Positions 9,249-25,805 of a stretch of DNA of 64,000 nucleotides are shown piece after piece. Each line of letters starts with the position of its first letter. Within the stretch, counting starts at the first letter, position 1. The stretch comes from Nibricoccus sp. (GTDB lineage: Bacteria > Verrucomicrobiota > Verrucomicrobiia > Opitutales > Opitutaceae), in assembly GCA_047600805.1 (NCBI GenBank), contig JASGKG010000001.1:1151133-1215132 (forward strand). The letters run 5' to 3'. The notes below the pieces were generated by a model, which worked only from the letters and a program-made list of their open reading frames with translations, ran no database searches and was not told the DNA's origin. A program made the translations under genes and the position numbers.

Positions 9249-9860
9249 TTAATCTGTAATCAGAGCAATCTGAATTCCGGGGCCGTGGACGCCTTGAATT
9301 AGAATACCCTCAACGTCAGCGGTTTTCGACGGGCCAGTGCACCATATCACGTTGGGATCTTCCCCCAGAGTGGTCACTGCTGCTGCGAGATCCGGAAGAA
9401 TATCACGCTTCGAAACGACAGCGACGTGAGTCCAAGGGGCGAGCGCACCCAAACGCGACGACGTACTTTTGTCCTTAAGTATGATCGAACCCGTTTCGGC
9501 GATCGCTCCGACCGCGCGCGTAATGCCGAACTGGAAATCGTCGACACGTTTCCGGTCGAACGACGTTTCTACTTGGAAGGGCTCGCCGAAGGCAGTTTTC
9601 AGCGTCGGCCACAGTTCGGGATCGCAGTATCCGCGTGTATTCCCTTGAGCCTTCAACCAATCGGCCAGTGCGGTTGCGTTGTCGAACGACTGCCCATTGA
9701 CGAGCTTGAGCCGCTCTTTGAAAACGTTGGTGGCATCAGCAAAGGAAAGGCTGGGCATGGTGGCGGTCTTCTCGCCGTATTCGGGAAGTGCGGCGCGTTT
9801 TTGGAGCGGTGCAAGAGCAGCGCGGACCCGGCCGATGATTTTTTCGCGAGAGGCGTTCAT
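9249..9860 (-). CDS. lutC: lactate utilization protein C (LutC/YkgG, LUD domain)
   Basis: About 200 aa LUD-domain-like protein, last gene of the lutA-lutB-lutC order. Its start overlaps the lutB stop (9857..9860). Confidence 0.7.
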   Translation of the reverse strand: MNASREKIIGRVRAALAPLQKRAALPEYGEKTATMPSLSFADATNVFKERLKLVNGQSFDNATALADWLKAQGNTRGYCDPELWPTLKTAFGEPFQVETSFDRKRVDDFQFGITRAVGAIAETGSIILKDKSTSSRLGALAPWTHVAVVSKRDILPDLAAAVTTLGEDPNVIWCTGPSKTADVEGILIQGVHGPGIQIALITD

Positions 9861-11248
9861 TTCTTTTTATGATTTTTCATCCACTTTCTAAACTGACCGC
9901 CCCGCCAAGGAGGCAGGCCTCGATCATCGATCCAACTTTTAGCGGCGCGAGGCAGTAAGGCGTGCGGCACAACGTTGATCAGGCCGCCCATCGCAAGTGC
10001 CGATTTCCAAGCAACCGGCATCGTTGCGCCGAGAGCCCAAGCACCAAGCGGAGGTGCGGCAGCTCCGGCCGCTTCGCTGTGCTCCAGCTTGCCGCGATTC
10101 CGTAGCCGCAGGAGCAGGTCGGGAATGGGGATGTTGACGGGGCAGACCTCGTTGCACGCGCCGCAAAGACTGGAGGCTTTGGGTAAGTCTGCTAGTTCTG
10201 GAAAACGTTTGCCCGCGAGTAACGGCGAAAGGACGGCGCCGACCGGTCCCGGATAAACGCTGCGATAGGCGTGGCCGCTGGCCTGGCGGTAAACCGGGCA
10301 GACATTCAGGCAAGCGCCGCAACGAATGCAGCGGAGGATTTCTTTGCACTCGCTGGCGAGCACGTCGGTGCGGCCATTGTCCACAAAGATGACGTGCATC
10401 TCTTCTGGGCCGTCTGGTTGGTTAGCGCTTTTCGGGCCGGAAATGAACTCGGTGTAAACCGTGAGCTGCTGGCCCGTGCCGGAACGTGCGAGGAGATTGA
10501 GGAAGATCGCCAGGTCGCGGTCGCGCGGTACGATTTTTTCGATGCCGATCAGCGCGATATGAATCTTAGTTGCGGCGAGAGAGAACCGCGAATTGCCCTC
10601 GTTGGTGACGAGAACGATGCGGCCGCTTTCGGCTGAAACGAAATTTGCGCCCGTGATGCCCACGTCGGCCTGGAGGTATTTGTGGCGCAAATACTGGCGG
10701 GCTCGGCGGGTGATTGTCTCTGGATCATCGTTGTAGTCGCCGAGGCCGTTTTCCTCAAACAGCTTTGCGATTTCGCGGCGATTCTTGTGAATGATCGGTT
10801 TGACGATGTGCGAGGGATGGTCGTGGCCGATTTGAACGATGAATTCGCCTAGGTCGGTTTCGAGGCATTCAATGCCTTCCTTTTCCAGATACGGAGCCAG
10901 GCCGATTTCTTCGCTCACCATCGTTTTGGCTTTGACGATTTTCGTCGCGTTCCGCGCCCGCATGATTTCGAGCACACGCTGGCACGCCTCGCCGGCATCT
11001 TCGGCCCAGTGAACTTTCGCGCCGTTGGCCTGAAGTTTGGCTTCAACCTGTGGCAGGTACGTGTCGAGATTTTCGATGGTGTGCTGCTTGATGTCGCCTG
11101 CGAGTTTCCGCAGATTGTCGGGAGCAGGGTAGTGCGTGAAAAGCGCTTTCTTGCGGCTGTCGTAGCCAGCTTTCGAGCCGCCATAGACCGCGGAACGTTT
11201 GTCGGCTGCGAGTTTGGCCGCGTACTGATCGATTTGTTGGTATTTCAT
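9857..11248 (-). CDS. lutB: lactate utilization protein B (LutB/YkgF), 4Fe-4S iron-sulfur protein
   Basis: Ferredoxin-type cluster motifs CIRCGACLNVCPVYRQ and CGACNEVCPVNIP plus a C-terminal LUD-like region. Its stop overlaps the lutC start. Confidence 0.9.
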   Translation of the reverse strand: MKYQQIDQYAAKLAADKRSAVYGGSKAGYDSRKKALFTHYPAPDNLRKLAGDIKQHTIENLDTYLPQVEAKLQANGAKVHWAEDAGEACQRVLEIMRARNATKIVKAKTMVSEEIGLAPYLEKEGIECLETDLGEFIVQIGHDHPSHIVKPIIHKNRREIAKLFEENGLGDYNDDPETITRRARQYLRHKYLQADVGITGANFVSAESGRIVLVTNEGNSRFSLAATKIHIALIGIEKIVPRDRDLAIFLNLLARSGTGQQLTVYTEFISGPKSANQPDGPEEMHVIFVDNGRTDVLASECKEILRCIRCGACLNVCPVYRQASGHAYRSVYPGPVGAVLSPLLAGKRFPELADLPKASSLCGACNEVCPVNIPIPDLLLRLRNRGKLEHSEAAGAAAPPLGAWALGATMPVAWKSALAMGGLINVVPHALLPRAAKSWIDDRGLPPWRGGQFRKWMKNHKKK

Positions 11249-12018
11249 TTGGCGGCTCCTTCGTTGTTCTTCAACGCATCGCGAAGCAACTGCGCGACGT
11301 GCATCGACTTGATCGGCTGGCCCTGTTTTTCCGCTAGGCCACCGAGGTGCATCAGGCAGCTCATATCGGCGGAGAGAATCACATCCGGCTGAGCGGCACG
11401 CAGGTGGCTCAGCTTCAACTCACCCATCGATTTCGAAATGTTCGGAAAGGTGACCGAGAAGGTGCCGCCGAAACCGCAGCATTGCTCGAACTCATCGAAA
11501 TCGACAAGCTGCACGCCTTTGATCGAGCGCAGGAGTGTGTAGACCGCCTCGGTGGAGTTGCTCCCGCGAAGGTGGCACGAGCGGTGAAAAGCGATTTTTG
11601 CGTCGAAGCGGCCGCCCCAGGTTTTTATGCCGAGGCCGTTGACGATGTAGTCGCAGAGCTCCCACGTGCGATTGCCGAGCTGTTTCACATCGGCAAGATC
11701 GGGTTCGTTTTCAAACTCGAGCACAGCGCCATGATACATCATCGCCGCACACGAACCAGATGGCACCACCACGGGCGCTTCGCCGGCGAAGGTCTTGACG
11801 GCATGACGGACGACTTTGCGCGAAGAAGCCCAATCGCCACCGTTAAACGCGGGCTGGCCGCAGCAAGTCTGGCCTTCGGGGAAGTCGATTTCGCAGCCGA
11901 GATGTTCGAGAACTTCGACGGTTGCGGCAGCAACGTCGTCGTAAAAAGCGTCACAAAGGCACGTCGCCATGAGTTGGATACGTTTGCCGTTTGGGCGCGA
12001 GGGCGATGTCGTAGACAT
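11245..12018 (-). CDS. lutA: lactate utilization protein A (LutA/YkgE), CCG-domain Fe-S oxidoreductase
   Basis: MATCLCDAFYDDV...GQTCCGQPAFNGG...SCAAMM...CCGFGGTF are the paired cysteine-rich CCG domains of LutA. There is a 4-bp overlap with the lutB start. Confidence 0.85.
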   Translation of the reverse strand: MSTTSPSRPNGKRIQLMATCLCDAFYDDVAAATVEVLEHLGCEIDFPEGQTCCGQPAFNGGDWASSRKVVRHAVKTFAGEAPVVVPSGSCAAMMYHGAVLEFENEPDLADVKQLGNRTWELCDYIVNGLGIKTWGGRFDAKIAFHRSCHLRGSNSTEAVYTLLRSIKGVQLVDFDEFEQCCGFGGTFSVTFPNISKSMGELKLSHLRAAQPDVILSADMSCLMHLGGLAEKQGQPIKSMHVAQLLRDALKNNEGAAK

Positions 12019-12133
12019 GAGACGTGAGAGAGTATTTTTCGCGGTTTACGGTACAATCGCAAACGTTCGCCCGGGGGAGTGATTTTTGTCGATATGTCAG
12101 ATTCGATTAGCCAAGCTTAACGGCGATTTCCCC

Positions 12134-13567
12134 ATGGCTTCCACAACCTATTGCGCTGCTGTCGATCTAGGCGCCACGAGCGGCCGAGTCATTCTCGGTT
12201 CTTGGGCAAAAAATCAGCTTCGGCTGAACGAAGTTCACCGGTTTCCCAATGCGTTTCGCTCGATTAACGGGCACGATTATTGGGAAATCGGCACCCTTTG
12301 GAATGAAGTGCAAACCGGGCTGCGGAAAGCGATCGCCGCACTTCCGAAAGGCGCGAAACTCTCGTCAGTCGGTGCCGACACCTGGGGCGTTGACTACGTT
12401 TTGCTGAACGATGCAGGACGCCTCGTTTTTCCGATGCACGCCTACCGCGATGCTCGTACACAGGCCGGGCTGACGAAACTCGGCAACACACGCGCGGCAC
12501 TTGATCGCGTTTACGCGGCCACAGGCATCCCGAATGTGTTTTATAACAGCAGTCTTCAGCTAGCGGAAGTCGTGGCGAACTGTCCGGCCATCGAGGATAT
12601 GGCGACGCGCTGCCTCTTCCTGCCGGACTACTTAAATTATCTTCTCTCCGGTCGCATGGAGAACGAGCTGACGATCGCCAGCACGACCCAGCTTCTCGAC
12701 GTGCATTCGCGTGACTGGTCGCGTCAGGCGCTCGACTATTTCCGTATTCCGGCGGGTTGGTTCACGAAACCGGTTCTTGCAGGAACGAAGCTTGGAAATG
12801 TCGTGAATTTCCCGGAACTGAAGAGCGTAAAAGTGATCGCCGTGCCGGGCCACGACACCGCCGCTGCGTATGACGCGATGCCGGCCGATCCAGACGGCAG
12901 CGATCTTTTCCTCAGCTCGGGTACATGGTCACTGGTTGGCTTCGAAAGCGACAAGCCTGTCCTTGGCAAGGAAGCGCTCGCGGCTCGCGTTGCTAACGAA
13001 CGGATCGGCGACGGCCGTTATCGTCCGCTGACCAACGTGATCGGCTTCTGGTTGCTGGAAGGCGTGATGAAGGCTTTCCCCAATCGCCCGCAGAAAGAAG
13101 AAGAACGCGCCAAGCTCAACGCCGCCGCCGCTGCGTTGCCCGCGCCGAAACAGCTTCTTGATACAACTGATCCCGTTTTTGCAAATCCACCTTCGATGCG
13201 CGCGGCGATCGACGCGCAGCTTAAGAAAAAGGGCGCGCGTCCTCCCAAGGACCTTGCTGGCTACCTGCGCCTCATCTGTGACTCGCTCGGCCAGGGCCAT
13301 GCCAACGCGAAAGCGAACTTTGAGCGCATGACAGGCCGGAAGTTCAAGCGGATCCTGGTGGTGGGCGGTGGTTCGCGTAATAAGCTCATGTGCCAGGCGA
13401 CAGCCGATGCTGCGGGTATTCCGGTAATTTCCTTCAGCCTCGAAGGCACAGCAGTGGGCAACATAGCCAGCCAGCTCATCTCGCTCGGCGCGGTGAAAGA
13501 CAAAGCGACTTTCCGCAAGCACCTCAGCGCGGGGCTCGAAAAAGCTGTCTACACGCCGCGCGCTTAA
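12134..13567 (+). CDS. rhaB: rhamnulokinase (FGGY carbohydrate kinase)
   Basis: Closely parallels E. coli RhaB: AAVDLGATSGRV, EVHRFPN, DTWGVDYVLL, AYRDARTQ, SGTWSLVGFES, GNIASQLISLG. I chose the start at MASTTY (the ORF track extends to 12086). Confidence 0.85.
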   Translation: MASTTYCAAVDLGATSGRVILGSWAKNQLRLNEVHRFPNAFRSINGHDYWEIGTLWNEVQTGLRKAIAALPKGAKLSSVGADTWGVDYVLLNDAGRLVFPMHAYRDARTQAGLTKLGNTRAALDRVYAATGIPNVFYNSSLQLAEVVANCPAIEDMATRCLFLPDYLNYLLSGRMENELTIASTTQLLDVHSRDWSRQALDYFRIPAGWFTKPVLAGTKLGNVVNFPELKSVKVIAVPGHDTAAAYDAMPADPDGSDLFLSSGTWSLVGFESDKPVLGKEALAARVANERIGDGRYRPLTNVIGFWLLEGVMKAFPNRPQKEEERAKLNAAAAALPAPKQLLDTTDPVFANPPSMRAAIDAQLKKKGARPPKDLAGYLRLICDSLGQGHANAKANFERMTGRKFKRILVVGGGSRNKLMCQATADAAGIPVISFSLEGTAVGNIASQLISLGAVKDKATFRKHLSAGLEKAVYTPRA

Positions 13568-15764: not shown

Positions 15765-16697
15765 TCAGGCTTTGGGTTTCACCTTGGCCCAAATTTCCTG
15801 AAGGGCGCGGGCGCTGGCTTGGAGACCAGACAGTTCTTTAGGCCAGAGCGATAGTTCGACTTGGTCGATCACGCCGGCGCGGCCAACCACGGTCGGCACG
15901 CTGATCGAAACGTCGCGGAGGCCGTACTTGCCTTGTTGCAGCGACGAAACGGGCAAGAGCTGGCGCTTGTCGTGAGCGATGCAATGAACGACTTCCGCGA
16001 TGGTGAGGCCAACAGCCCAACCGGCGCCGCCTTTGCGGCGAATGACTTCGGCGCCGCTGTTCTTGGTGCGGTCGAATAGTTGGGTTTGGAAAGAGGGCGT
16101 TACGCCCGGCAGTTTCTCAAGCGGCAGACCCGCTGCGGTCGCGCTCGACCAAATCGGAACCATTGTGTCGCCGTGCTCACCGAGGATGAGGGCTTTGACT
16201 TGCGTCGGAGCGAGCTTGAGTTCGGCGGCGATCAGCGAGCGGAAGCGCGCGGTGTCGAGCATCGTGCCGAGGCCGATCACTTGTTTCCATGGCAGACCGA
16301 GGCGAACGGCGGCGAGCTGTGTGAGGATGTCGACCGGATTCGAGACGACGAAGACGATCGCATCTTTCCGGAAGCCGGCTTGTTTGATGGAGGTGAGAAT
16401 ACCGTCGAAAAGGGCGACGTTGCGATTGATCAGATCGAGCCGGGATTCGTCGGGTTTCCGGCGAAGGCCGGCGGTAATGACGAAGATGTCGCTGTCGGCT
16501 GCTTTGGCGTAATCGCCCGAGTAGATGCGTTGATCGGCGATGACGGAAGTGCCGTGCAGGAGATCGAGCGCTTCGCCCGCTGCGAGATCAGCGTTGGCGT
16601 CGAGGATTTGAATTTCGGAAACGATGCCGGCGCATTGGAGCGCGAACGCAGCATTTGATCCGACGCGGCCACCGCCGCCGATGATGGAAACTTTCAT
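15765..16697 (-). CDS. L-2-hydroxyacid dehydrogenase of the LDH/MDH family (Arg at the substrate-specificity position suggests malate-dehydrogenase-type)
   Basis: MKVSIIGGGGRVGSNAAFAL Rossmann motif. Loop ITAGLRRKPDESRLDL (LDH has Q, MDH has R before K). Active-site region ILGEHGDTMVP. Confidence 0.8.
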   Translation of the reverse strand: MKVSIIGGGGRVGSNAAFALQCAGIVSEIQILDANADLAAGEALDLLHGTSVIADQRIYSGDYAKAADSDIFVITAGLRRKPDESRLDLINRNVALFDGILTSIKQAGFRKDAIVFVVSNPVDILTQLAAVRLGLPWKQVIGLGTMLDTARFRSLIAAELKLAPTQVKALILGEHGDTMVPIWSSATAAGLPLEKLPGVTPSFQTQLFDRTKNSGAEVIRRKGGAGWAVGLTIAEVVHCIAHDKRQLLPVSSLQQGKYGLRDVSISVPTVVGRAGVIDQVELSLWPKELSGLQASARALQEIWAKVKPKA

Positions 16698-16734
16698 AAT
16701 TAGCTCCTAAATCTAAAGAGTGCCGAGGTTTTGT

Positions 16735-16808
16735 TAGTCACGCAAAGTCACAAAGACGCAAAGGAAGAAGTATCGAACTTTGCGACTTGGCGTCTTTGTG
16801 TGAGACTC
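16735..16808. promoter_or_regulatory. long imperfect inverted repeat in the aldolase / LDH-MDH intergenic region
   Basis: GTCACGCAAAGTCACAAAGACGC ... GCGTCTTTGTGTGAGACT with an inner ACTTTGCGACT arm. It lies between the aldolase stop (16810) and the dehydrogenase start (16697). Confidence 0.3.
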
Positions 16809-16809
16809 G

Positions 16810-17895
16810 TCAGCGTTTTAACTGCTTGAGGATTTCTTCGGTGAGCTTCTGGACGAGCCCTTCAATTTCTGGCGTGGGCTTCGGATCGGCGGAAGCAGCA
16901 GAAGCGCCGTGAGCGGGGACTTCGCAAACCGCGCCCGGACGGAATTCCGCGCTGTCGCAGAGTTCACATTCTTTGAGGTTGGCGCGAGGATCGGGCATGC
17001 CGAGCTTTTGGCGGAGATTGATGAGCTCTTTGGCCTGACCGCCCGTGAAACGATGAAGTCCGCTACCCAAACCAGCTGCTATCCACACCGTACGGCAATA
17101 GGAATCGATGTTCTCCATCTTCCAGTAGGCGTCTTCGACGTCCTTGCCCCAAACGATCACACCGTGGTTTTGCATGAGAACGGCCTGGTGGTCTTTGCCG
17201 ACTTCGCCGACTTCATCGGAATTGGCGGGCGTGCCTGGCGTCTGGTATTTCGCGACGCCGATCTTGCCGAGGAAGACTTCGGCTTCAGGAATCAGGCAGG
17301 AAGGAATGGAAACATTGGCGATGGCAAACGCGGTGGCGTGCGGTGGGTGAGCGTGCACGCAGGCCTTGGCGGCGGGCTGGCGTTTCATGATCCCGAAGTG
17401 CGTCTTGGCCTCGGAGGTGCGAACGCGTGTACCTGCGAGTTGGTTACCGTCGAGGTCGGTCAGGCACATGTCCTCGGGCTTCATGAAGCCTTTGCAGATG
17501 AGAGTGGGCGTGGTGAGGGCGAGGTTGTCGCCGACGCGGATGGTGATGTTGCCGCCGTTGCCGTCGGTGTACTCGCGAGTCCAGAGGCGCGAACCCATGT
17601 CGCAGATGCGCTGCTTGAGGACGTTGATCGCGGGAGAGTTGAAAAACTTTTCGATTTCCGCGGGCGTCTTCGGATCGCTGCCGGGCGTCCATCTAAATTC
17701 GTAGTCGGGAATCGACGGAGCGGCAGGTTTGCCGGTCGCGCGCGCGGGGCCGACGCTGTTTTTGGCGGCTTGGGCGGCGCGCTTTTGATCGTCGATAAAA
17801 TCGCGGGCCGACGGCGTAAGGATGGCGCCTTCGGGAATGGATTGACCGGAGCGGATCAGCGCTTCGACTTCGCGGGCAGTGAGGATCTGAGGCAT
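16810..17895 (-). CDS. class II aldolase (rhamnulose-1-P / fuculose-1-P aldolase type) with N-terminal extension consistent with a BMC encapsulation peptide
   Basis: Aldolase_II core (GGNITIRV..., HAHPPHATAFA, NHGVIVWG). It is preceded by about 80 extra residues, MPQILTAREVEALIRSG..., and a Pro/Ala-rich linker. The Met 24 nt downstream of the BMC-P stop is the plausible start. Confidence 0.85.
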   Translation of the reverse strand: MPQILTAREVEALIRSGQSIPEGAILTPSARDFIDDQKRAAQAAKNSVGPARATGKPAAPSIPDYEFRWTPGSDPKTPAEIEKFFNSPAINVLKQRICDMGSRLWTREYTDGNGGNITIRVGDNLALTTPTLICKGFMKPEDMCLTDLDGNQLAGTRVRTSEAKTHFGIMKRQPAAKACVHAHPPHATAFAIANVSIPSCLIPEAEVFLGKIGVAKYQTPGTPANSDEVGEVGKDHQAVLMQNHGVIVWGKDVEDAYWKMENIDSYCRTVWIAAGLGSGLHRFTGGQAKELINLRQKLGMPDPRANLKECELCDSAEFRPGAVCEVPAHGASAASADPKPTPEIEGLVQKLTEEILKQLKR

Positions 17896-17918
17896 GGGAA
17901 ACGTGTGAATTAAAAGTG

Positions 17919-18239
17919 TTAGTTGGGGAGCGGCTCGTAGTTGATGCGTTCGACGATGCAAGCGACGTAGGCGTCAACCGGAGCGGGGCCGGTAAAAGGT
18001 TGGGTGGCTTCGGCGCCTTCGGTGATACCAACGATGCTGCCTTGGCCCGCGCCGAGTTGATCGTAAACGACGAGGCTCGAACCTTTCGCCAGAGGCACGG
18101 GAGGGGCGCCGGCGAACTGCGCTTTGGAAAACGGCTGCACGATCAGCAGGCGACCGCCTTCGTAAACGGGTTCCTTTTGCGTAAGGGTGATGCGGCCGAT
18201 GACAGTTCCGAGGCGCATGTCAGTCCTTTCGCTTTTCAA
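17919..18239 (-). CDS. BMC vertex protein (BMC-P, EutN/CcmL/PduN family) 3 of 3
   Basis: MRLGTVIGRITLTQKEPVYEGGRLLIVQP...VVYDQLGAGQGSIVGITEGAEA is the EutN/CcmL fold signature. Confidence 0.85.
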   Translation of the reverse strand: MKSERTDMRLGTVIGRITLTQKEPVYEGGRLLIVQPFSKAQFAGAPPVPLAKGSSLVVYDQLGAGQGSIVGITEGAEATQPFTGPAPVDAYVACIVERINYEPLPN

Positions 18240-18495
18240 TCGGATCGACGATGCCGACGATCAGATTGCGCAGAGGCGTTTTCGGATCTTTGACGAGCTC
18301 GCGCGTGGCGGACCCGTCGGTGGAAAGGATCACATGCTCATGCAGTCCTGCGCCGAGACAATCGATTGCGAGGATTGGCGTGCCTTCTTCATTCCCGTCC
18401 GCATCGATCGGCTGACAAATCACCGTGCGGTAGCCTTCCATGCTGGGATGGTGGGCTGCCGTGACGATGTTGCCGTCGATGCGAGCAAGATTCAT
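18220..18495 (-). CDS. BMC vertex protein (BMC-P, EutN/CcmL/PduN family) 2 of 3
   Basis: MNLARIDGNIVTAAHHPSMEGYRTVICQPID...AIDCLGAGLHEHVILSTDGSA. The ORF-track N-terminus (to 18657) overlaps the aldehyde dehydrogenase, so I placed the start at the internal Met. Confidence 0.8.
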   Translation of the reverse strand: MNLARIDGNIVTAAHHPSMEGYRTVICQPIDADGNEEGTPILAIDCLGAGLHEHVILSTDGSATRELVKDPKTPLRNLIVGIVDPIEKRKD

Positions 18496-18538
18496 GCAGA
18501 AGGAGTCAGGATTCGGGATACAGGAGCCAGGAGCTGAG

Positions 18539-19990
18539 TTAGTAGATACGCAAGTTATCGACCAGCACGCAGCGACGCGTGCGGGTAAACGTGCGCGGGT
18601 TGGTGATGCCTTCGCCGGTGGTCGTCGCGATCGAGTAGCTGAGGTAGCCTTCGCCACCCAAACCGAGACCGGCGACGCACGAACCGTTTTTGATGAAGAT
18701 CGTCGTGTCGAGCGCGCGGGCCATCGCGGTCATGCGGTCAACGTTCATCGAATGGATGATCGAAGAGTGCTTGTAACCGTGTTCGGCTTTCTTCGCGGCC
18801 TGAATGCCTTCTTCGATCGTCTTTACGCGGACGATCGGCAGCATCGGCATCATCTGTTCTTCGATAACGAACGCGTGGTTAGCGTCGGTTTCAGCGAAGA
18901 GCAGCTGAGTTTTGTCGGGAATCGAGACACCCGCGTGTTTGGCGAGGACTGAAGCGTCGACACCGACCATCGCGCGATTGAGCACCGGATGTGAGCAACC
19001 GCCGGCATCGGCCTTGGTCGAGAAAGCGACTTTCGTTAGAGCATCGAGCTGGTTGTCGTTGAGGCCATAAGCGCCGTTGCGGGCGAGAGCGGCCAGGAAT
19101 TTGTCGGCAATGGAATCGAGGACGAACACTTCCTTTTCACCAATGCAGAGGAGATTGTTGTCGTAGGCGGCACCGTGAACGATGTTGGCCGCGGCGCGAT
19201 CAAGATCGACGGTGTCGTCGACGAGAACGGGAGGATTGCCCGGGCCGGCGCAGATGGCGCGCTTGCCGGATTTCATCGCGGCAGCTACAACGGCTGGACC
19301 GCCGGTGACGCAAATCACTGGGACCTCAGGCGCTTTGCAGAGCGCGTCGAAAGATTCGAGCGTCGGCTTTTCAATCGTGCAAACGAGATTCTCGATGCCG
19401 ATCTCGGCTTTGATGGCCTCATTGAAAGTGCGAACCGCGAGCGCGGCGGACTTGGCGCCGCCTGGGTGCGGATTGAAGACGACGGCGTTTCCGGCAGCGA
19501 CGATGTTAATGATGTTGCCGGAGAGCGTCGGGATCGAGTGCGTCATCGGCAGAATCGCCGCGATGACGCCGTAGGGTGTGTATTCCTCGAGGGTGATACC
19601 GTGATCGCCGCTGCGGGCGTCGGGGCGCAACCATTCAACACCGGGAACGAGCTTCACGATCTGGAGCTTCTCGATCTTGTGGTCGAGGCGGCCGATCTTG
19701 GTTTCGGCGAATTCGAATTTGCCCCATTCCTCAGCTTTGGCAGTGCAGATCGCCTTGACGATCTCGACGACCTTGGCGCGGGCGGCGACGCCCTTGATGC
19801 GGAGTTGTTCGTAGGCGGCGTAAGCGGCTTTGCAGGCGGAGGCAGCGTCTTGGAAAACGCCGAGGCCGCCGGAAGAAGAAACAATAGCCGGTGCTCCGGA
19901 AACACCGGTGGACGTGCGACCAAAGGCACGGACCACTTCCTCGACCACGGAGCGGACGAGGTTTTCATCAATGACGATCTGGGAAGACAT
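18539..19990 (-). CDS. CoA-acylating aldehyde dehydrogenase (PduP/EutE type) with N-terminal encapsulation-peptide-like helix
   Basis: Aldehyde DH fold with catalytic Cys region NNLLCIGEKEVFV and NAD binding VTGGPAVVAAAMKSGK. Extra N-terminus IDENLVRSVVEEVVRAF plus a G/S linker. Confidence 0.9.
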   Translation of the reverse strand: MSSQIVIDENLVRSVVEEVVRAFGRTSTGVSGAPAIVSSSGGLGVFQDAASACKAAYAAYEQLRIKGVAARAKVVEIVKAICTAKAEEWGKFEFAETKIGRLDHKIEKLQIVKLVPGVEWLRPDARSGDHGITLEEYTPYGVIAAILPMTHSIPTLSGNIINIVAAGNAVVFNPHPGGAKSAALAVRTFNEAIKAEIGIENLVCTIEKPTLESFDALCKAPEVPVICVTGGPAVVAAAMKSGKRAICAGPGNPPVLVDDTVDLDRAAANIVHGAAYDNNLLCIGEKEVFVLDSIADKFLAALARNGAYGLNDNQLDALTKVAFSTKADAGGCSHPVLNRAMVGVDASVLAKHAGVSIPDKTQLLFAETDANHAFVIEEQMMPMLPIVRVKTIEEGIQAAKKAEHGYKHSSIIHSMNVDRMTAMARALDTTIFIKNGSCVAGLGLGGEGYLSYSIATTTGEGITNPRTFTRTRRCVLVDNLRIY

Positions 19991-20010
19991 GAAAAGGAGC
20001 TAAAGATTGG

Positions 20011-20310
20011 TTAGACGATGCGCTTGCCAAGGACCTCGACGGTATCGACGAGGCCGACGATCGAGGCGTCGACCGGCATTTGTTTCATGCCCGTGGTTTG
20101 GCGCGCGGAACTGCCCTGGCAGAAGAGAACAAGGTCACCCGTGCCTGCGCCGAGAGCATCGGCGGCCACGATAGTATTGGCGCCGGGTTTGAGCTGAGTC
20201 GGATTTGCCTCATCGACCAACATGGGCCGAAGGAGGAGGAGTGGGCGGCCGCGCAGGGTCTCGTCTTTTTTAGTGGAGACCACGGAGCCAATGACGCGGG
20301 CGAGAAACAT
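20011..20310 (-). CDS. BMC vertex protein (BMC-P, EutN/CcmL/PduN family) 1 of 3
   Basis: MFLARVIGSVVSTKKDETLRGRPLLLLRP...VAADALGAGTGDLVLFCQGSSAR. I placed the start at the internal Met (the ORF track extends to 20502). Confidence 0.8.
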   Translation of the reverse strand: MFLARVIGSVVSTKKDETLRGRPLLLLRPMLVDEANPTQLKPGANTIVAADALGAGTGDLVLFCQGSSARQTTGMKQMPVDASIVGLVDTVEVLGKRIV

Positions 20311-20383
20311 GGCAGTTCCCGGGTTGGAGGGTTTTCGCTTCGAAACGGCGCGCCTTCGACGACGCGCCGTGAAAAGCGCGGGC

Positions 20384-20686
20384 TTATTTCTTCGGAGCGG
20401 CAGGAGCAACGGGCTTTGGCAGCACCGTGACGACGTCATCGTGCGGGCGCGGAATAACCTGCACGCTGATGACCTCGCCGTAAGCGCGAGCGGCGGTGGC
20501 ACCGGCTTCGGTGGCGGCCTTGACAGCGGCGACGTCGCCTGTGACGACGGCGGTCACGAGGGCGTTGCCGACCTGTTTCATCGGGCCAACGAGAGTGACG
20601 TTGGCGGACTTGAGCATGGCATCGACGCCAGCAACCAGGGCGGTGAGGCCGCGGGTTTCAAGAAGACCGAGAGCGGATTGAGACAT
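20384..20686 (-). CDS. BMC shell hexamer protein (BMC-H, PduA/EutM/CcmK family)
   Basis: [30 protein letters not shown]...[19 protein letters not shown]...VIPRPH is the canonical BMC-domain signature. Confidence 0.9.
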
Positions 20687-20724
20687 GGTGGATTGGATTT
20701 GAGGTTTAGTTAGAGAAAGGAAAT

Positions 20725-21912
20725 TCAGGCTTTGGGCTGGGCGGCGACGAGGCGGGCGGTTTCGCGGGCGACGACGAGTTCTTCATTCGCCGGGATGACG
20801 AGCACGCGGGTGCGGGAGCCGTTGGCGGAGAGATCGGTTTCGTGCGGCGCTGTTTTGTTGCGGTTCGTGTCGAGCACGAGACCGAGATCGGAAAGATTGG
20901 CGCAGATCGCTTCGCGCAACCACGGGTTGTTTTCGCCGATGCCGGCTGTGAAAACGAGAGCGTCGCAGCCGCCGAGTTCGACCCAGAAAGCGCCGATCCA
21001 GTGACGGATGCTCTGGACGAAAACCTCGAGCGCGAGTTTGGCGCGGGCGTCGCCTTTGTCGGCGGCGGCCTTGATGTCGCGAACGTCGTTACTCACGCCG
21101 GAGATGCCGAGCAGGCCTGACTCTTTGACGAGCTGGCGTTCGGCGTCTTCGAGGGAAATTTTCAGGCGGCGCATCGCGCAGGGCAGGGCGGCGGAATCGA
21201 GGTCGCCGACACGGTTGTTTTGCGGGAGGCCGGATTGCGGGCTCAGGCCCATGCTGGTGCCGATGGCGACGCCGTTGCGGATGCCGGTGACGGAACTCGA
21301 ACCGCCGAGATGGCAGGAAATCACGCGCAGCGGAGCGCCGGCGACTTCGCGCGGACCATCGAGGTATAAGCGGCGAACGATTTCGCCGATGTCATCGTGA
21401 CCAAGCAATTCCGCGGAACGCTCGGCGACGAACTTGTGGCTGGCGCCGTGGAAACCGTAGCGACGGATGCCGGCCTTGTACCAAGTCTCTGGTACGGCAT
21501 ACCGGCTCGCATGGTCGGGCACCCACTGGTAGAACGCCGTCTCGAAGAGAGCGACGCGCGGGACAGACGGGAGCTTTTCGCGGAAGACGCGCAGGCCCTC
21601 GGCGTACGGCTTGTTGTGCGCGGGCGCGAGATCGACCGTATCGAGCAACGCTTTTTCAACGCGTTCGTCGGCCAGGAGGCAGCCGGTGATTTCGCCCCCG
21701 AGGACGGTTTTGAAACCGACGGCGTCGAGATCATTCGCGTTCTTGAGATGACCGGCTGAAGAGAGTTCTCCGAGCGCCAAATCGATCGCAGCGCGATAAT
21801 CGGTCACGCGTTCGCTTCCGCCCTTCGCCAACAGGCGCGCCTGCGAGCCGTCGACGTCGAAGAGACGGTACTTGAACGAGGTGGAGCCGAGGTTGGCGAC
21901 GAGGATTTTCAT
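20725..21912 (-). CDS. ackA: acetate (acyl) kinase
   Basis: [19 protein letters not shown]..., [14 protein letters not shown]-like motifs. Canonical AckA length of 395 aa. Confidence 0.95.
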
Positions 21913-21980
21913 CAGCGAGCGCGAAGGAAATACGGGCCGGCCGGGCAGCGATGCGCGGCCGGTTTAGTCTTTGGAACGAG

Positions 21981-22259
21981 TTAGGCGACCCACTTGCCGA
22001 GACCAGCGAGGTCTTCGTGCGGACGCGGAATGACCTGGGTGGCGACGACTTCGCCGACGCGCTTGGCGGCTTCAGCGCCGGCGTCGATGGCGGCCTTGAG
22101 GGCGGCGACATCACCGCGGAAGAATGCCGCGACGTTGCCGGAGCCGATCGTCTCGTAGCCGGACATCGTGACATTGGCCGCTTTGAGGGCGGCGTCGGAG
22201 GCCTCGAGCAAGGTGCACAGGCCTTTGGTTTCAATCATACCGAGAGCTTCTTGAGCCAT
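21981..22259 (-). CDS. BMC shell hexamer protein (BMC-H)
   Basis: [31 protein letters not shown]...[38 protein letters not shown]. Confidence 0.9.
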
Positions 22260-22301
22260 GGTGGAAAGAGTTTAGATATTAGAGGTTAGGGGCGGTTTGG
22301 C

Positions 22302-22571
22302 TCACATTCCGAAGTGCTTGAGCAGCTCGGGATGCGGGCGCGCAATGACGTGGGCGCAGACGAGTTCGCCGACGCGTTTGGCGGCTTCAGCGCCGGCGTC
22401 GATGGCGGCTTTGACGCTGCCGATGTCGCCCTTGACGATGACGGTAACGAGACCGCCGCCGATCTGGATTTGGCGGGCGAGGTTAACGCCTGCCGCTTTG
22501 ACCATGGCATCGCTGGCTTCAACGGAGCCGACGTAGCCTTTGGTTTCGATCATGCCGAGAGATTCACTCAT
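22302..22571 (-). CDS. BMC shell hexamer protein (BMC-H)
   Basis: [29 protein letters not shown]...[38 protein letters not shown]. Confidence 0.9.
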
Positions 22572-22621
22572 GTGGAATCGGATTGAGGTTGGTTGGAGGT
22601 TTACGGGTTAAAATTGGTTCG

Positions 22622-23305
22622 TTACTCAGCGGGCAAAAGCTCGCAGGGAGTGTCGGGCCCGAGGCCGCAGGCGTTGCCTTCGTCGGTGTCGATATGGACC
22701 TCGAGTTTGAAATCTTTCGAGACACGGACGAGCATGCGATCGAACGTCATGGCGCAAGGGCCACCGACTTTGAGGCGCATGAAATCGCCCTGCTTCACGC
22801 CATAGAAAGCGGCGTCGTCTGGGTGCATGTGCACGTGCGGGGCGGCGCGGATGACGCCCTCGGGCATTTCAAAAAATCCCGCGGGGCCCATCAGCATGCA
22901 ACTGGGCGTGTCTTTGATGGTTCCGGACTGGCGGACGGGTACTTCGAAGCCGAGCGAAATGGCGTCGGTCAAAGCGAGCTCGACCTGGTTGAAATCGCGG
23001 CACGGACCGAGAATGCGGAGATTGGAAATCACGCGACTACGCGGCCCGATCAGTGTGACGGATTCCTTCGCGGCGTATTGGCCGTCCTGATACAGCCACT
23101 TCATCGGCGTGAGCTGGTAGCCTTTGCCGAAGAGCGCTTCGACGGCTTGCGGCGAGAGGTGGCAATGACGCGCGCTGACGTTGACGACGAGCGGGCGCGG
23201 AGCGCGCACGGAGCGCGGCATCGGGCGTTGAAGACGTTGATAGAGTAGCCGGCGAACGACGTGCTCGATTTCGGCACGATGAGGCAGGGTTGGCGCGGGC
23301 GTCAT
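22622..23305 (-). CDS. pduL: PduL-type phosphotransacylase with N-terminal encapsulation-peptide-like helix
   Basis: Two PduL repeat motifs (VVNVSARHCHLS; ...APHVHMHPDDA...). Extra N-terminus IEHVVRRLLYQRL plus a P/R-rich linker. Confidence 0.85.
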   Translation of the reverse strand: MTPAPTLPHRAEIEHVVRRLLYQRLQRPMPRSVRAPRPLVVNVSARHCHLSPQAVEALFGKGYQLTPMKWLYQDGQYAAKESVTLIGPRSRVISNLRILGPCRDFNQVELALTDAISLGFEVPVRQSGTIKDTPSCMLMGPAGFFEMPEGVIRAAPHVHMHPDDAAFYGVKQGDFMRLKVGGPCAMTFDRMLVRVSKDFKLEVHIDTDEGNACGLGPDTPCELLPAE

Positions 23306-23412
23306 GGGGTCAGTGTGTCAGAAAGGGTTGAAAACAGCTTACCACAATTTGTCGAAAGCTGTGCGTTTTATGACGCAAGTCAATCATATAACTTTCGGAG
23401 GTAGAATTCACT

Positions 23413-23452
23413 TTTCGAAAACAAAAAACGCGCACGAGTTATCATGCGCGTT
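23413..23452 (-). terminator. Rho-independent terminator downstream of the thioredoxin-like gene, insulating it from the BMC operon promoter region
   Basis: Minus-strand hairpin AACGCGCATGATAACTCGTGCGCGTT (8-bp GC-rich stem) followed by TTTTTTGTTTTCG. It is 30-70 nt after the stop of the 23481..23891 gene. Confidence 0.6.
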
Positions 23453-23480
23453 CGAAAATTCTGAGGGCTGAGCGGCGCGG

Positions 23481-23891
23481 TCAATATTTCGACGAAGGCC
23501 TTACAAACATCAGAAGCTTGTTTTTGTCAGCGAACGGGCCGACCCAAGGGAAGCCGACCACTTTACCTTTTTCGACAACGATGAGAGTGGGCGTGGCTTG
23601 CACGTTATATTGATCGTGAACGGCGCGGTTATCGGCGAGGGCGGTGTTGATCTTCACGACCCGTATTTTGGGATAATCTTTTGCCAATTGTTCTAACAAC
23701 GGTGTGGTCGCCTCGCAGGGCGGGCTGTCTGGTTGCCAGAAATAGAGGAGGACTTTTTGATCCGTGCTTTCCAGTATTCTGGAGAGGCGCTCCTCTGTGA
23801 CCACGTCGGGGCCAAATGTCTTAAATTTTTGCGCGCGACTTAGGAATACCGCGACCACCGCGATCAAAGTGACGACCAGGTATCTGTTCAT
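23481..23891 (-). CDS. membrane-anchored thioredoxin-like protein (atypical single-Cys SPPCE motif)
   Basis: N-terminal signal anchor MNRYLVVTLIAVVAVFL. Thioredoxin-fold layout VLLYFWQPDSPPCEA...PTLIVVEKGKVVG, with a single Cys in place of CxxC. Confidence 0.5.
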   Translation of the reverse strand: MNRYLVVTLIAVVAVFLSRAQKFKTFGPDVVTEERLSRILESTDQKVLLYFWQPDSPPCEATTPLLEQLAKDYPKIRVVKINTALADNRAVHDQYNVQATPTLIVVEKGKVVGFPWVGPFADKNKLLMFVRPSSKY

Positions 23892-24224
23892 AAGGCTTGG
23901 CGATTGATTGAAGCTGACGATGAATGCTGGGCCGAAGCTGGATGAGGCGCGTCAGGAACGGACGAGACGCTAGTCCAGCACCTGACAGAAACACAACCTC
24001 TCTTTTGGTGCATTTCCCAATGAACGCGAATGACGGGTCGAGTTTCGCTAGATTTTGACGAACCGGAAACGCATTTTTCTCCAACGCTCTTGGAGGTTTT
24101 GGCGTTCTTTAGCGATTTCGTGGAGTGAAACGCGCGAAGGCGTAAACTTTTCAGAGTGGCTCTCGGCGCTTTGCTAGCGATACCGTTGGCGCGCTCTGCC
24201 GTCTTAAAGCGCGAAAATCTTTCC

Positions 24225-25805
24225 ATGAAGTTACCCTCTGTGAGCTATTCTCGATTCAACAAGAGCGTTTTTGGCGCCACTTTATTGTTAGGTGCGACTT
24301 GTTTGACGGCGTGGACCAAAGTGAACGAAAGCTTGATCCCTGCGGCCGATAACGTCGGCGCCGCCATGATGCCCGCGGAAATCGCTGCGATCTCAGCGCC
24401 GTTCCTGATGCCGCCGTTGACGCGCCCACGGTTCCCGAGCCTGCGCGTCGTGGTTGTGTTGGGCGCCACTGAAGAATTGGCGACCAGGGCTATTCAGGCC
24501 GCGATTGACGAAGTCTCGGCGAAAAACGGCGGCACCGTCATCCTCTCTAAAGGTGTGTGGAAAACGGGGAGGCTGAGTTTGAAGAGCAACGTTAACCTGC
24601 ATCTTGAATCAGGAGCTGAGCTTCAGTTCAGTGGGCGAGTGGAGGATTACCAACCGGCGGTGTTCACCCGGACCGAAGGCGTGGAAGTGTTTTCGCTCGG
24701 TGCGTTGATTTATGCGAACGGGCAGGAGAACATTTCGCTCACGGGTCAGGGCAGATTGATTGGCCCGCCTCTCGACAGCCCGATGCGAAAGCAGAAAAAC
24801 CGTGTGAGTGTGGACAAAATCGATGCTCGTCAACCGGTCGTCGAACGCCGTTGCGACGGGCGTGGCGGCGGCCCCGTCTACCTTCCGGTCTTTTTCGGGC
24901 CGATTAATTGTCGCAACGTATTGGTTGAGGGCCTTACGTTTGAGCAGAGTGCGTTGTGGAACATCGTGCCGCAATACTGCGATCGCGTGATTATTCGCGG
25001 TGTGACCGTCGAGTCGGAAAAAATTCCTTCTGGCGATGGGATCGACGTCGATTCGAGCCGCAACGTGCTGATTGAGTACTGCACCTTCAGCTGCGGTGAT
25101 GATTGCGTAGTAATCAAGGCGGGACGCGGTGAAGACGCCTTGCGCGTGGACAAGTCGAGCGAGTTCATCGTGATGCGAAACTGCCTGGTACGGAAAGGCC
25201 ACGCCGGCATTTCGACCGGCAGCGAGACAGGCGGGATGATCCGCAACCTCTACGTTTGCGACAGCGTGTTTCAGGAGCCGGTCGTGGGAATCCGCCTCAA
25301 AACGCGGCGGCCAAGAGCGGGCGGCGGCGAAAAATTATACTACGAACGCATTCGCATCGGCCAGTGCTCGACGGCGATCGCTTGGGATATGCTCGGTGAA
25401 TCGAAATTCGTAGGCGAAGAGGCCAGTCGCTTGCCGGAGCGCGCCGTTACGAAGCTGACGCCGGTTTACCGTGACGTTACGATAAAACAGGTGCTCGCCG
25501 AAAAGGCGCGCTTCGCCATCAAAGTGATTGGTATTCCTGAAAGCCCGGCGGCCAATATCGTGATCGAAGACGTAACCGCGACCACGACCGAACGACCGAT
25601 CATCTTGAACGACGTTGATGGTTTTGCGCTGAGGAACGCAGACATCAAAAGCGCCAACGACACGATTGGCTTCTTAGATGCGCGGAAAGTCGTTTTCGAG
25701 AACTGCCGCTTTGATACAACGACTGGCCAACTCAATCTCGACGTTGCCGGTGAGCGATCTCGTGAAATTGAATTCCGCAACTGCACACCAACGCCGCGGC
25801 AGTAG
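24225..25805 (+). CDS. secreted glycoside hydrolase family 28 (polygalacturonase / rhamnogalacturonase type)
   Basis: Signal peptide MKLPSVS...LLGATCLTAW. GH28 motifs SGDGIDVD (NTD-like), CGDDCVVIK (GDDC), KGHAGIS (GHG), GIRLKT (RIK). Start trimmed to the signal-peptide Met. Confidence 0.8.
   Translation: MKLPSVSYSRFNKSVFGATLLLGATCLTAWTKVNESLIPAADNVGAAMMPAEIAAISAPFLMPPLTRPRFPSLRVVVVLGATEELATRAIQAAIDEVSAKNGGTVILSKGVWKTGRLSLKSNVNLHLESGAELQFSGRVEDYQPAVFTRTEGVEVFSLGALIYANGQENISLTGQGRLIGPPLDSPMRKQKNRVSVDKIDARQPVVERRCDGRGGGPVYLPVFFGPINCRNVLVEGLTFEQSALWNIVPQYCDRVIIRGVTVESEKIPSGDGIDVDSSRNVLIEYCTFSCGDDCVVIKAGRGEDALRVDKSSEFIVMRNCLVRKGHAGISTGSETGGMIRNLYVCDSVFQEPVVGIRLKTRRPRAGGGEKLYYERIRIGQCSTAIAWDMLGESKFVGEEASRLPERAVTKLTPVYRDVTIKQVLAEKARFAIKVIGIPESPAANIVIEDVTATTTERPIILNDVDGFALRNADIKSANDTIGFLDARKVVFENCRFDTTTGQLNLDVAGERSREIEFRNCTPTPRQ

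Follow-up and report, generated by a model that had tools for sequence, protein, structure and literature searches.

The 64,000-nucleotide stretch of the Nibricoccus sp. genome analyzed here (GCA_047600805.1, contig JASGKG010000001.1, positions 1,151,133 to 1,215,132; herein the window) carries a bacterial microcompartment (BMC) operon of the Planctomycetes-Verrucomicrobia (PVM) type, a fucose/rhamnose, lactaldehyde-processing system of an Opitutaceae member. Its class II aldolase (361 residues; minus strand, ATG at 17895 to stop at 16810; Pfam PF00596, E = 1e-44) has, in addition to an encapsulation peptide (EP) at the C terminus, a 45-residue N-terminal module resembling the N termini of EutQ and EutT. 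We propose, with a probability of roughly 0.6, that the organelle uses two kinds of targeting elements: canonical EPs, and a built-in shell anchor on the aldolase, which is itself cargo and would act as a tether between shell and core. The EPs of the phosphotransacylase PduL, of the CoA-acylating aldehyde dehydrogenase (AldDH), and of the aldolase C terminus were already known; to these the signature enzyme adds, as the new element, a module of EutQ type proposed for targeting or tethering.

The resemblance was noticed first at the N terminus of Escherichia coli EutQ (KKLITANDIREAHARGEQAMSVVLRASIITPEAREV). A 45-position hidden Markov model (HMM) was built from aldolase N termini only and searched against 1379 six-frame open reading frames (ORFs) from the window and the E. 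coli eut region. Beyond the aldolase itself, only two sequences were retrieved, the EutT N terminus at 25.0 bits (P = 6e-10) and that of EutQ at 18.2 bits (P = 8e-8), and no other match was better than P ~1e-3. Across the 18950 models of NCBIfam, only BMC families match aldolase N-modules, and they do so at fitting termini: the C terminus of the Eut protein family TIGR02536 (E down to 1.7e-6), the N terminus of the EutQ model (E = 0.012 to 0.12), and, for a divergent aldolase module, the C terminus of the PduM models (E = 0.004 to 0.01). Salmonella PduM aligns over the full module with residues 121 through 160 of 163 (HMM P = 4e-4; hhalign P = 5e-4, probability 31%). These profile matches place the aldolase N-module in one sequence family with the EutQ and EutT N termini, with a weaker likeness to the C termini of PduM and TIGR02536. 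No Pfam family matched the N-terminal region of either the aldolase or EutQ at E ≤ 10. The module profile, searched against Protein Data Bank (PDB) sequences, gave only spurious matches, summed over repeats, to de novo TIM barrels and CagY. Residues 6 through 92 of E. coli EutQ (L001:24303-25004, minus strand) also match the first 88 positions of the EutA-variant model NF007991 (E = 1.6e-9); some EutA reactivases thus appear to carry an entire EutQ-like N-terminal region.

The AlphaFold2 model of the aldolase (mean predicted local distance difference test, pLDDT, 79.8) folds residues 1 through 45 into a β-α-β-α arrangement, with strands at residues 4 and 5 and 25 and 26 and helices at residues 7 through 16 and 28 through 45; pLDDT is 80 to 88 in the full protein and 90 when the module is modelled alone. 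The protein was also aligned with close (75 to 90% identical) and distant (33 to 58% identical) homologs (alignments A1/A2). G17 and, in the TPxARD motif, T27, P28, A30, R31, and D32 are invariant among aldolases down to 33% identity, and at 33 to 58% identity they are among the very few invariant residues of the whole protein. What the sequence-only reading, an earlier interpretation made from the DNA letters without database searches, had taken for a short amphipathic helix is predicted to be a folded module of two strands and two helices. EPs show no sequence conservation between protein families (PMC4594438), which makes the conservation of the module atypical of them. The N-terminal element of the aldolase is a different kind of module from a canonical EP.

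For comparison, 80 related loci with a total of 13130 ORFs were taken from species-representative genomes. All 59 aldolases linked to BMC genes in Verrucomicrobia and other genomes (some of them mis-binned) have the N-module, as do 7/7 of those in Acidobacteria. The five Planctomycete aldolases lack it and retain the C-terminal EP, and all six verrucomicrobial paralogs without a BMC gene closer than 10 kb lack both it and the C-terminal extension. Of the claim that the aldolase has an N-terminal EP, the extension itself stands, since it is real and BMC specific, absent as it is from the six paralogs; its assignment as the canonical EP does not, that peptide being the C-terminal one. The only nonaldolase carriers detected by the module HMM among all the ORFs are four Planctomycete ORFs (plus strand; L072:3961-4719, L075:3619-4689, L079:708-1493, and L080:2337-3242), all lying between the second and third BMC-P shell genes, one in each Planctomycete locus that covers this stretch. 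The encoded protein (~230 to 250 residues) has an N-terminal EP-like helix (e.g., MNVDSGLVDQIVARVLASLEA), a linker, the module (VITASQL...IITPAARDVIRERHLTI), and a degenerate RpiB/LacAB-like domain at the C terminus (Pfam E = 3e-4 and 0.015, neither reaching the family cutoff). Because Planctomycete aldolases lack the module and a separate EP-module protein is found instead, EP and module are, as judged from these sequences, either combined on the aldolase (Verrucomicrobia and Acidobacteria) or carried by a separate small protein (Planctomycetes).

On the minus strand of the window, the module (MPQILTAREVEALIRSGQSIPEGAILTPSARDFIDDQKRAAQAAK; 17761..17895), delimited by the model, the alignments, and the profile matches, is followed by a 17-residue Ala/Pro linker (residues 46 through 62, NSVGPARATGKPAAPSI; 17710..17760) with pLDDT <50 that is variable and gapped in both alignments. 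The body of the enzyme (16981..17709) comprises a precore segment (residues 63 through 94, beginning PDYEFRWTPGSDPKTPAEIEKFF) and a FucA-like core (residues 95 to ~305) with the Zn ligands H181, H183, and H244. The core has its best Foldseek matches in E. coli YgbL and FucA (target TM-score 0.87 to 0.90); solved FucA proteins have ~206 to 215 residues, compared with 361 for the window aldolase. The precore segment is conserved, confidently modelled, and partly common to the non-BMC paralogs. An extension of about 100 residues before the core, as had been described, conflates the module, the short linker, and the conserved N-terminal part of the aldolase subfamily; of the Pro/Ala-rich linker put at about 60 residues, only the 17 residues named above are variable and of low confidence.

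Behind the core lies a conserved Cys motif (residues 308 through 324, KECELCDSAEFRPGAVC; KECELCDxxxFRPGxVC; 16924..16974), in which both alignments show C310 and C313 to be invariant and C324 nearly so. The six non-BMC paralogs align from query residue ~56 to 84 up to ~296 to 309, i.e., no further than the beginning of this motif. E. coli EutT (L001:23503-24306, minus strand) has CCELC shortly behind its own copy of the module; the motif may serve in metal binding or redox chemistry, or the likeness may be coincidental. The aldolase ends in a C-linker (residues 325 through 341) and the C-terminal EP (residues 342 through 361, PEIEGLVQKLTEEILKQLKR; together 16813..16923), defined by the model, its hydrophobic moment, and the literature. 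Residues 316 through 340 have pLDDT <50 and residues 342 through 360 form a helix with hydrophobic residues at i, i+3, i+4, and i+7 and a moment of 0.73 to 0.76 (99.2 to 99.8th percentile); E345 is invariant, and the peptide is kept in Planctomycete and shorter BMC aldolases. A C-terminal EP was reported on 21 of 23 BMC-associated class II aldolases, with an extension on one terminus only (PMC4594438; Aussignargues et al. 2015). The canonical EP of this aldolase is thus the C-terminal one, as published, which the sequence-only reading had overlooked.

In two representatives of 50%-identity clusters, P0138 and P0150, none of the Zn ligands is left and the catalytic Glu is gone as well (HAH to FAT, H244 to Q); N-module, CELCD motif, and C-terminal EP are all retained, which hints at pseudoenzymes kept for a structural role. 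As to their genomic context, one metagenome scan gave only an unrelated match at 19% identity, and the genome scan gave none.

Class II aldolases of this kind are oligomeric. In the mechanism that we propose, the canonical EPs (N-terminal on PduL and AldDH, C-terminal on the aldolase) would, on the model of metabolosomes already studied, gather the cargo into a core and connect this with the shell. The aldolase N-module (hhTxxDh...G...hhTPxARD), set on a 17-residue disordered tether, would dock on shell proteins, and the C-terminal EP would embed the enzyme in the AldDH/PduL core, making the oligomeric aldolase the shell-core tether of the organelle. In Planctomycetes the same job would have been split off to the small protein of EP, module, and degenerate RpiB-like domain.

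The shell-docking proposal is made because the counterpart region of EutQ docks on the shell and because an EP sits at the other end of the aldolase. Residues 1 through 99 of EutQ suffice to target green fluorescent protein to the BMC (PMC12487888). Helices H1/H2 (residues 9 through 41) mediate shell association, and their deletion detaches EutQ from the shell with cargo retained; H3/H4 (residues 62 through 99) bind cargo EPs, residues 2 through 62 showing no chemical-shift change with EP, and deletion of any of these parts separates shell from cargo (PMC12487888). EutQ without its first 100 residues no longer binds EutM in vitro (PMC4827028). PduM is directed to the core by an N-terminal signal sequence, and in its absence shell and core come partly apart (PMC12108088). 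From this analogy we infer shell binding and a tether role for the aldolase N-module.

Several observations weigh against this proposal. The shell role is transferred from EutQ on ~25 to 30% identity over 40 residues, and the pairwise BLASTP E-value is only 0.001. In NCBIfam, the N terminus of the window aldolase itself matches only TIGR02536, at E = 0.034; the PduM alignment is suggestive at most; and no solved structure resembles the N-module (best Foldseek match to the PDB, E = 1.7). Neither the localization of EutT nor the role of its N terminus is described in the literature found. The module might also only add redundancy, as the C-terminal EP is already present. Finally, at the position of EutM Q64, where a change to Lys abolishes EutQ binding, the three BMC-H proteins of the window (20384-22571, minus strand) have K, K, and R, and the interface is therefore not identical to that of EutQ and EutM. 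The equivalents of EutM K53 and D57, on which EutQ binding depends, are kept in all three proteins; with this mixed outcome, the EutM interface residues were not used as support for a EutQ-like interface.

The native K/R residues at the Q64 position are also an argument for the strongest alternative, in which the N-module is a BMC-specific interaction domain that does not bind the shell and instead contacts other cargo or EPs, drives oligomerization or condensation of the core, or recruits the acetate kinase AckA or the Ldh-type dehydrogenase. The BMC specificity of the module and its distribution on EutQ, EutT, PduM-like, and PVM proteins establish an association with BMCs and leave the partner unspecified, and as two core-pathway enzymes are untagged, some piggy-back mechanism is needed. 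We nevertheless consider this alternative unlikely: the part of EutQ that binds cargo and EPs is H3/H4, of which the aldolase has no equivalent, and EutQ without H1/H2 keeps its cargo and loses the shell.

Rather improbable is the view that all three enzymes carry ordinary N-terminal amphipathic EPs, that of the aldolase being set on a long linker and serving only for packaging. Helix 7 through 16 of the aldolase does have a moment of 0.66 to 0.72 (99th percentile), a variable linker comes after it, and the extension is missing from the non-BMC paralogs. The conserved unit, however, spans 45 residues, and TPxARD, where its conservation is highest, falls outside the first helix, so that the aldolase N terminus does not have the form of a single-helix EP. 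Its motif is kept in EutQ, EutT, and the Planctomycete protein, contrary to the behavior of EPs; the profile of the aldolase C-terminal EP cross-matches the AldDH N termini and not that of the aldolase; and a canonical EP is already present at the aldolase C terminus.

Single-helix EPs are found at AldDH residues 7 through 23, at aldolase residues 342 through 361, and, by pattern and conservation, at PduL residues 11 through 25. Residues 1 through 46 of AldDH and 1 through 40 of PduL lie outside the Pfam domains, and the linkers of both proteins differ between loci. The extension helices have amphipathic moments at or above the 99th percentile of all peptide windows in the locus proteins, apart from the PduL helix itself (0.30). 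The AldDH EP (IDENLVRSVVEEVVRAF; 19922..19972, minus strand) was assigned by moment and conservation and is followed by a Gly/Ser linker (residues 24 through 45; 19856-19921). It has hydrophobic residues at i, i+1, i+4, i+5, i+8, i+9, and i+12 and a moment of 0.76 to 0.84 (99.8 to 99.9th percentile); the motif xLhRxhVxEVhxxL, with a variable linker next to it, is kept in the listed AldDH reading frames of Verrucomicrobia, Acidobacteria, and Planctomycetes.

The PduL EP (AEIEHVVRRLLYQRL; 23231..23275, minus strand) precedes a 13-residue Pro/Arg linker (residues 26 through 38; 23192-23230). Since its Eisenberg moment is only 0.30, the case for it rests on the residue pattern (hydrophobic residues at i, i+3/4, and i+7/8), conservation, and the literature; the maximum of the sliding-window moment fell in the Arg/Pro linker and was discarded as an artifact of Arg periodicity. 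The pattern xIExLVRxxhYxxLG is kept in the 47 PduL reading frames found, those of the Acidobacteria loci included; no Planctomycete locus of the fetched set has a PduL gene. Deletion of the N-terminal EP (residues 1 through 20) of PduL from the Planctomyces limnophilus PVM locus altered its oligomeric state (PMC4784909). The N-terminal EPs claimed for PduL and AldDH are thus canonical, conserved in all related loci with a readable N terminus, and described in the literature; the proposed check on helicity and amphipathicity bears out AldDH by its moment and PduL by its pattern, and fails for the aldolase as a single helix. EPs on PduL and AldDH and none on AckA are textbook for this locus type.

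CxC or CxCH motifs occur inside the AldDH EP linker in 19 related loci (e.g., L036, L038, L041, and L045) and in the aldolase C-linker in seven (L005, L006, L027 through L030, and L037). No locus has them in both linkers and 32 have them in neither; the linkers of the window also lack them.

The N-terminal peptides quoted for aldolase, AldDH, and PduL are all present where the sequence-only reading had placed them, and the start codons were taken as real because these peptides are kept in related loci with a readable N terminus. That the extensions are annotation artifacts, with real starts downstream and the N-terminal peptides untranslated, is a very remote prospect, rejected on grounds of conservation: it draws on an internal Met29 of PduL just behind the helix and on the lack of any Shine-Dalgarno confirmation, and is countered by extensions kept at the protein level across phyla, by a Met at the position equivalent to aldolase M1 in 59/68 module-bearing aldolases from other genomes, by next in-frame Met residues of aldolase (residue 100) and AldDH that lie within the catalytic fold, by the lack of conservation of PduL Met29 in homologs, and by the AlphaFold2 fold of the aldolase module. 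No Shine-Dalgarno-like sequence precedes any operon gene (16700-23500, minus strand), which makes that check uninformative on starts; the spacers are short and C/T-rich, e.g., ...ccaatccaccATG. A TTG at 17961 would give the aldolase a longer ORF; this start was rejected, as the added part overlaps the upstream BMC-P gene and all homologs begin at the Met of MPQIL or its equivalent. PduL Met29 (23219-23221, minus strand) could yield an isoform without the EP.

In each of the 54 AckA reading frames found, the protein starts straight with the catalytic domain, as had been claimed for the window, and the Ldh-type dehydrogenase does likewise (MKVxIIGGGG) in 28/28; neither has a C-terminal tail, and the amphipathic moments of their termini fall at the 85th to 98th percentile of the peptide windows of the locus. 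It is reasonable to predict from the tags a lumen that holds aldolase, AldDH, and PduL, with AckA untagged. The Ldh/Mdh-type enzyme is the predicted NAD-recycling core enzyme of PVM BMCs (PMC4207490); because it too is untagged, a missing tag is no proof of exclusion. In Eut BMCs, acetate kinase activity (EutQ) lies inside (PMC12487888). The absence of a tag is weak evidence for exclusion; untagged enzymes may piggy-back.

A Pfam scan and reading of the ORFs place all operon genes on the minus strand of the window, in the order PduL, two BMC-H, AckA, a third BMC-H, BMC-P, AldDH, two BMC-P, class II aldolase, and Ldh/Mdh-family dehydrogenase. The enzymes are PduL (227 residues; 22622..23305; PF06130, E = 3e-71; PTAC domain at residues 41 through 215), AckA (395 residues; 20725..21912; PF00871, with the profile end reached at residue 383), AldDH (483 residues; 18539..19990; PF00171 from residue 47), the aldolase, and the dehydrogenase (310 residues; 15765..16697; PF00056 and PF02866 over residues 1 through 307). 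Interspersed among them (17919..22571) are three BMC-H genes (22571-22302, 22259-21981, and 20686-20384) and three BMC-P genes (20310-20011, 18495-18220, and 18218-17919), found by a PF00936/PF03319 scan with starts read from the sequence. The window thus has everything by which a PVM locus is recognized: class II aldolase, AldDH, PduL, acetate kinase, an Ldh/Mdh-type dehydrogenase, a BMC-P triplet, and a verrucomicrobial host. By the published definition, the PVM-type BMC processes fucose and rhamnose via lactaldehyde (PMC4207490, PMC8217296). A 361-residue protein 100% identical to the window aldolase is annotated in a Nibricoccus (Opitutaceae) metagenome-assembled genome (MAG).

Complete related loci have a common gene set of PduL, three or four BMC-H, AckA, three BMC-P, AldDH, and aldolase; the Ldh gene lies inside the fetched stretch in just under half of them. 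The operon of the window is flanked (9857-13567 and 24156-25805) by LutB/LutA-like lactate-utilization genes, an FGGY (rhamnulokinase-like) kinase, and a GH28 pectin-type hydrolase, which fits a deoxy-sugar pathway yielding lactaldehyde and lactate. Four of the related loci (L045, L053, L060, and L071), and also L020, are of the verrucomicrobial PVM type on contigs labeled as Bifidobacterium, Bifidobacteriaceae, or Gemmatimonadales MAGs; these labels are probably binning errors in public records.

How the core is fastened to the shell is known for few BMCs, through CcmN, CsoS2, the PduB N terminus, and EutQ. We know of nothing on core-shell fastening in the environmentally abundant PVM organelles of polysaccharide-degrading Verrucomicrobia, and our literature search, incomplete in its coverage, found no publication on the N-terminal module of PVM aldolases or its link to EutQ, EutT, or PduM. 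If the proposal holds, the aldolase N-module is a concrete 45-residue candidate for the shell anchor; it would join EutQ, EutT, and perhaps PduM in one module family and give engineers of synthetic compartments a second, orthogonal targeting tag. PduM has been described as without known homology outside Pdu (mSphere 2025, PMC12108088). The picture of EP placement is amended as well, as the 2015 survey, which covered few Verrucomicrobia, had the aldolase extension on one terminus only (PMC4594438).

A broader reading, to which we give somewhat less than even odds, is that the TPxARD module is a general, portable shell-docking domain of metabolosomes, an unrecognized family, and that proteins pairing it with an EP are shell-core tethers. 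Its carriers would be EutQ, EutT, some EutA variants, PduM, TIGR02536, the PVM aldolases of Verrucomicrobia and Acidobacteria, and the Planctomycete protein. If this is true, the pairing with an EP occurs on one polypeptide or across an oligomer, and in Verrucomicrobia the signature enzyme took over a structural role.

Among known systems, the EutQ H1/H2 region is a close counterpart of the aldolase N-module. The two share the motif and its order (hhTxxDh...G...hhTPxARE/D), a position at the extreme N terminus of a protein encoded in a BMC operon, and a flexible linker next to it: H1 and H2 of EutQ lie in residues 9 through 41 with residues 42 through 61 flexible, and the aldolase has helices at residues 7 through 16 and 28 through 45 with residues 46 through 62 disordered. 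EutQ differs in continuing with H3/H4, which bind cargo EPs, and a cupin domain, whereas the aldolase lacks H3/H4 and is itself cargo with an EP at its other end. Shell binding has been shown for EutQ alone; the aldolase module is compared with it by sequence. EutT, an ATP:cob(I)alamin adenosyltransferase, gives the strongest match (LTPSARE), also N-terminal and ahead of the catalytic domain (Pfam from residue 95), but belongs to an unrelated enzyme family. PduM, whose likeness to the module is only suggestive, would follow the same logic of EP plus module as the aldolase and the Planctomycete protein, and its body is needed for the shell-core link; it differs in that TP is replaced by TA, the order is inverted (EP N-terminal, module C-terminal), and there is no enzyme domain.

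The canonical EPs of PduP, PduD, PduL, EutC, EutE, and the class II aldolase C terminus (PMC4594438) are matched by PduL residues 11 through 25, AldDH residues 7 through 23, and aldolase residues 342 through 361, all three of them terminal amphipathic helices of ~15 to 20 residues with variable linkers, located at the published termini and missing from non-BMC homologs. The aldolase N-terminal element departs from this type in its 45 residues, its two strands and two helices, and a TPxARD motif common to unrelated proteins. The Planctomycete PVM locus (P. limnophilus type; Erbilgin et al. 2014, cited in PMC4207490) has the same kinds of shell and enzyme genes, a C-terminal EP on the aldolase, and, in the one listed locus (L080), an N-terminal EP on AldDH. 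It differs in that its aldolase lacks the N-module, which is found instead on an extra gene between two BMC-P genes that the verrucomicrobial loci do not have.

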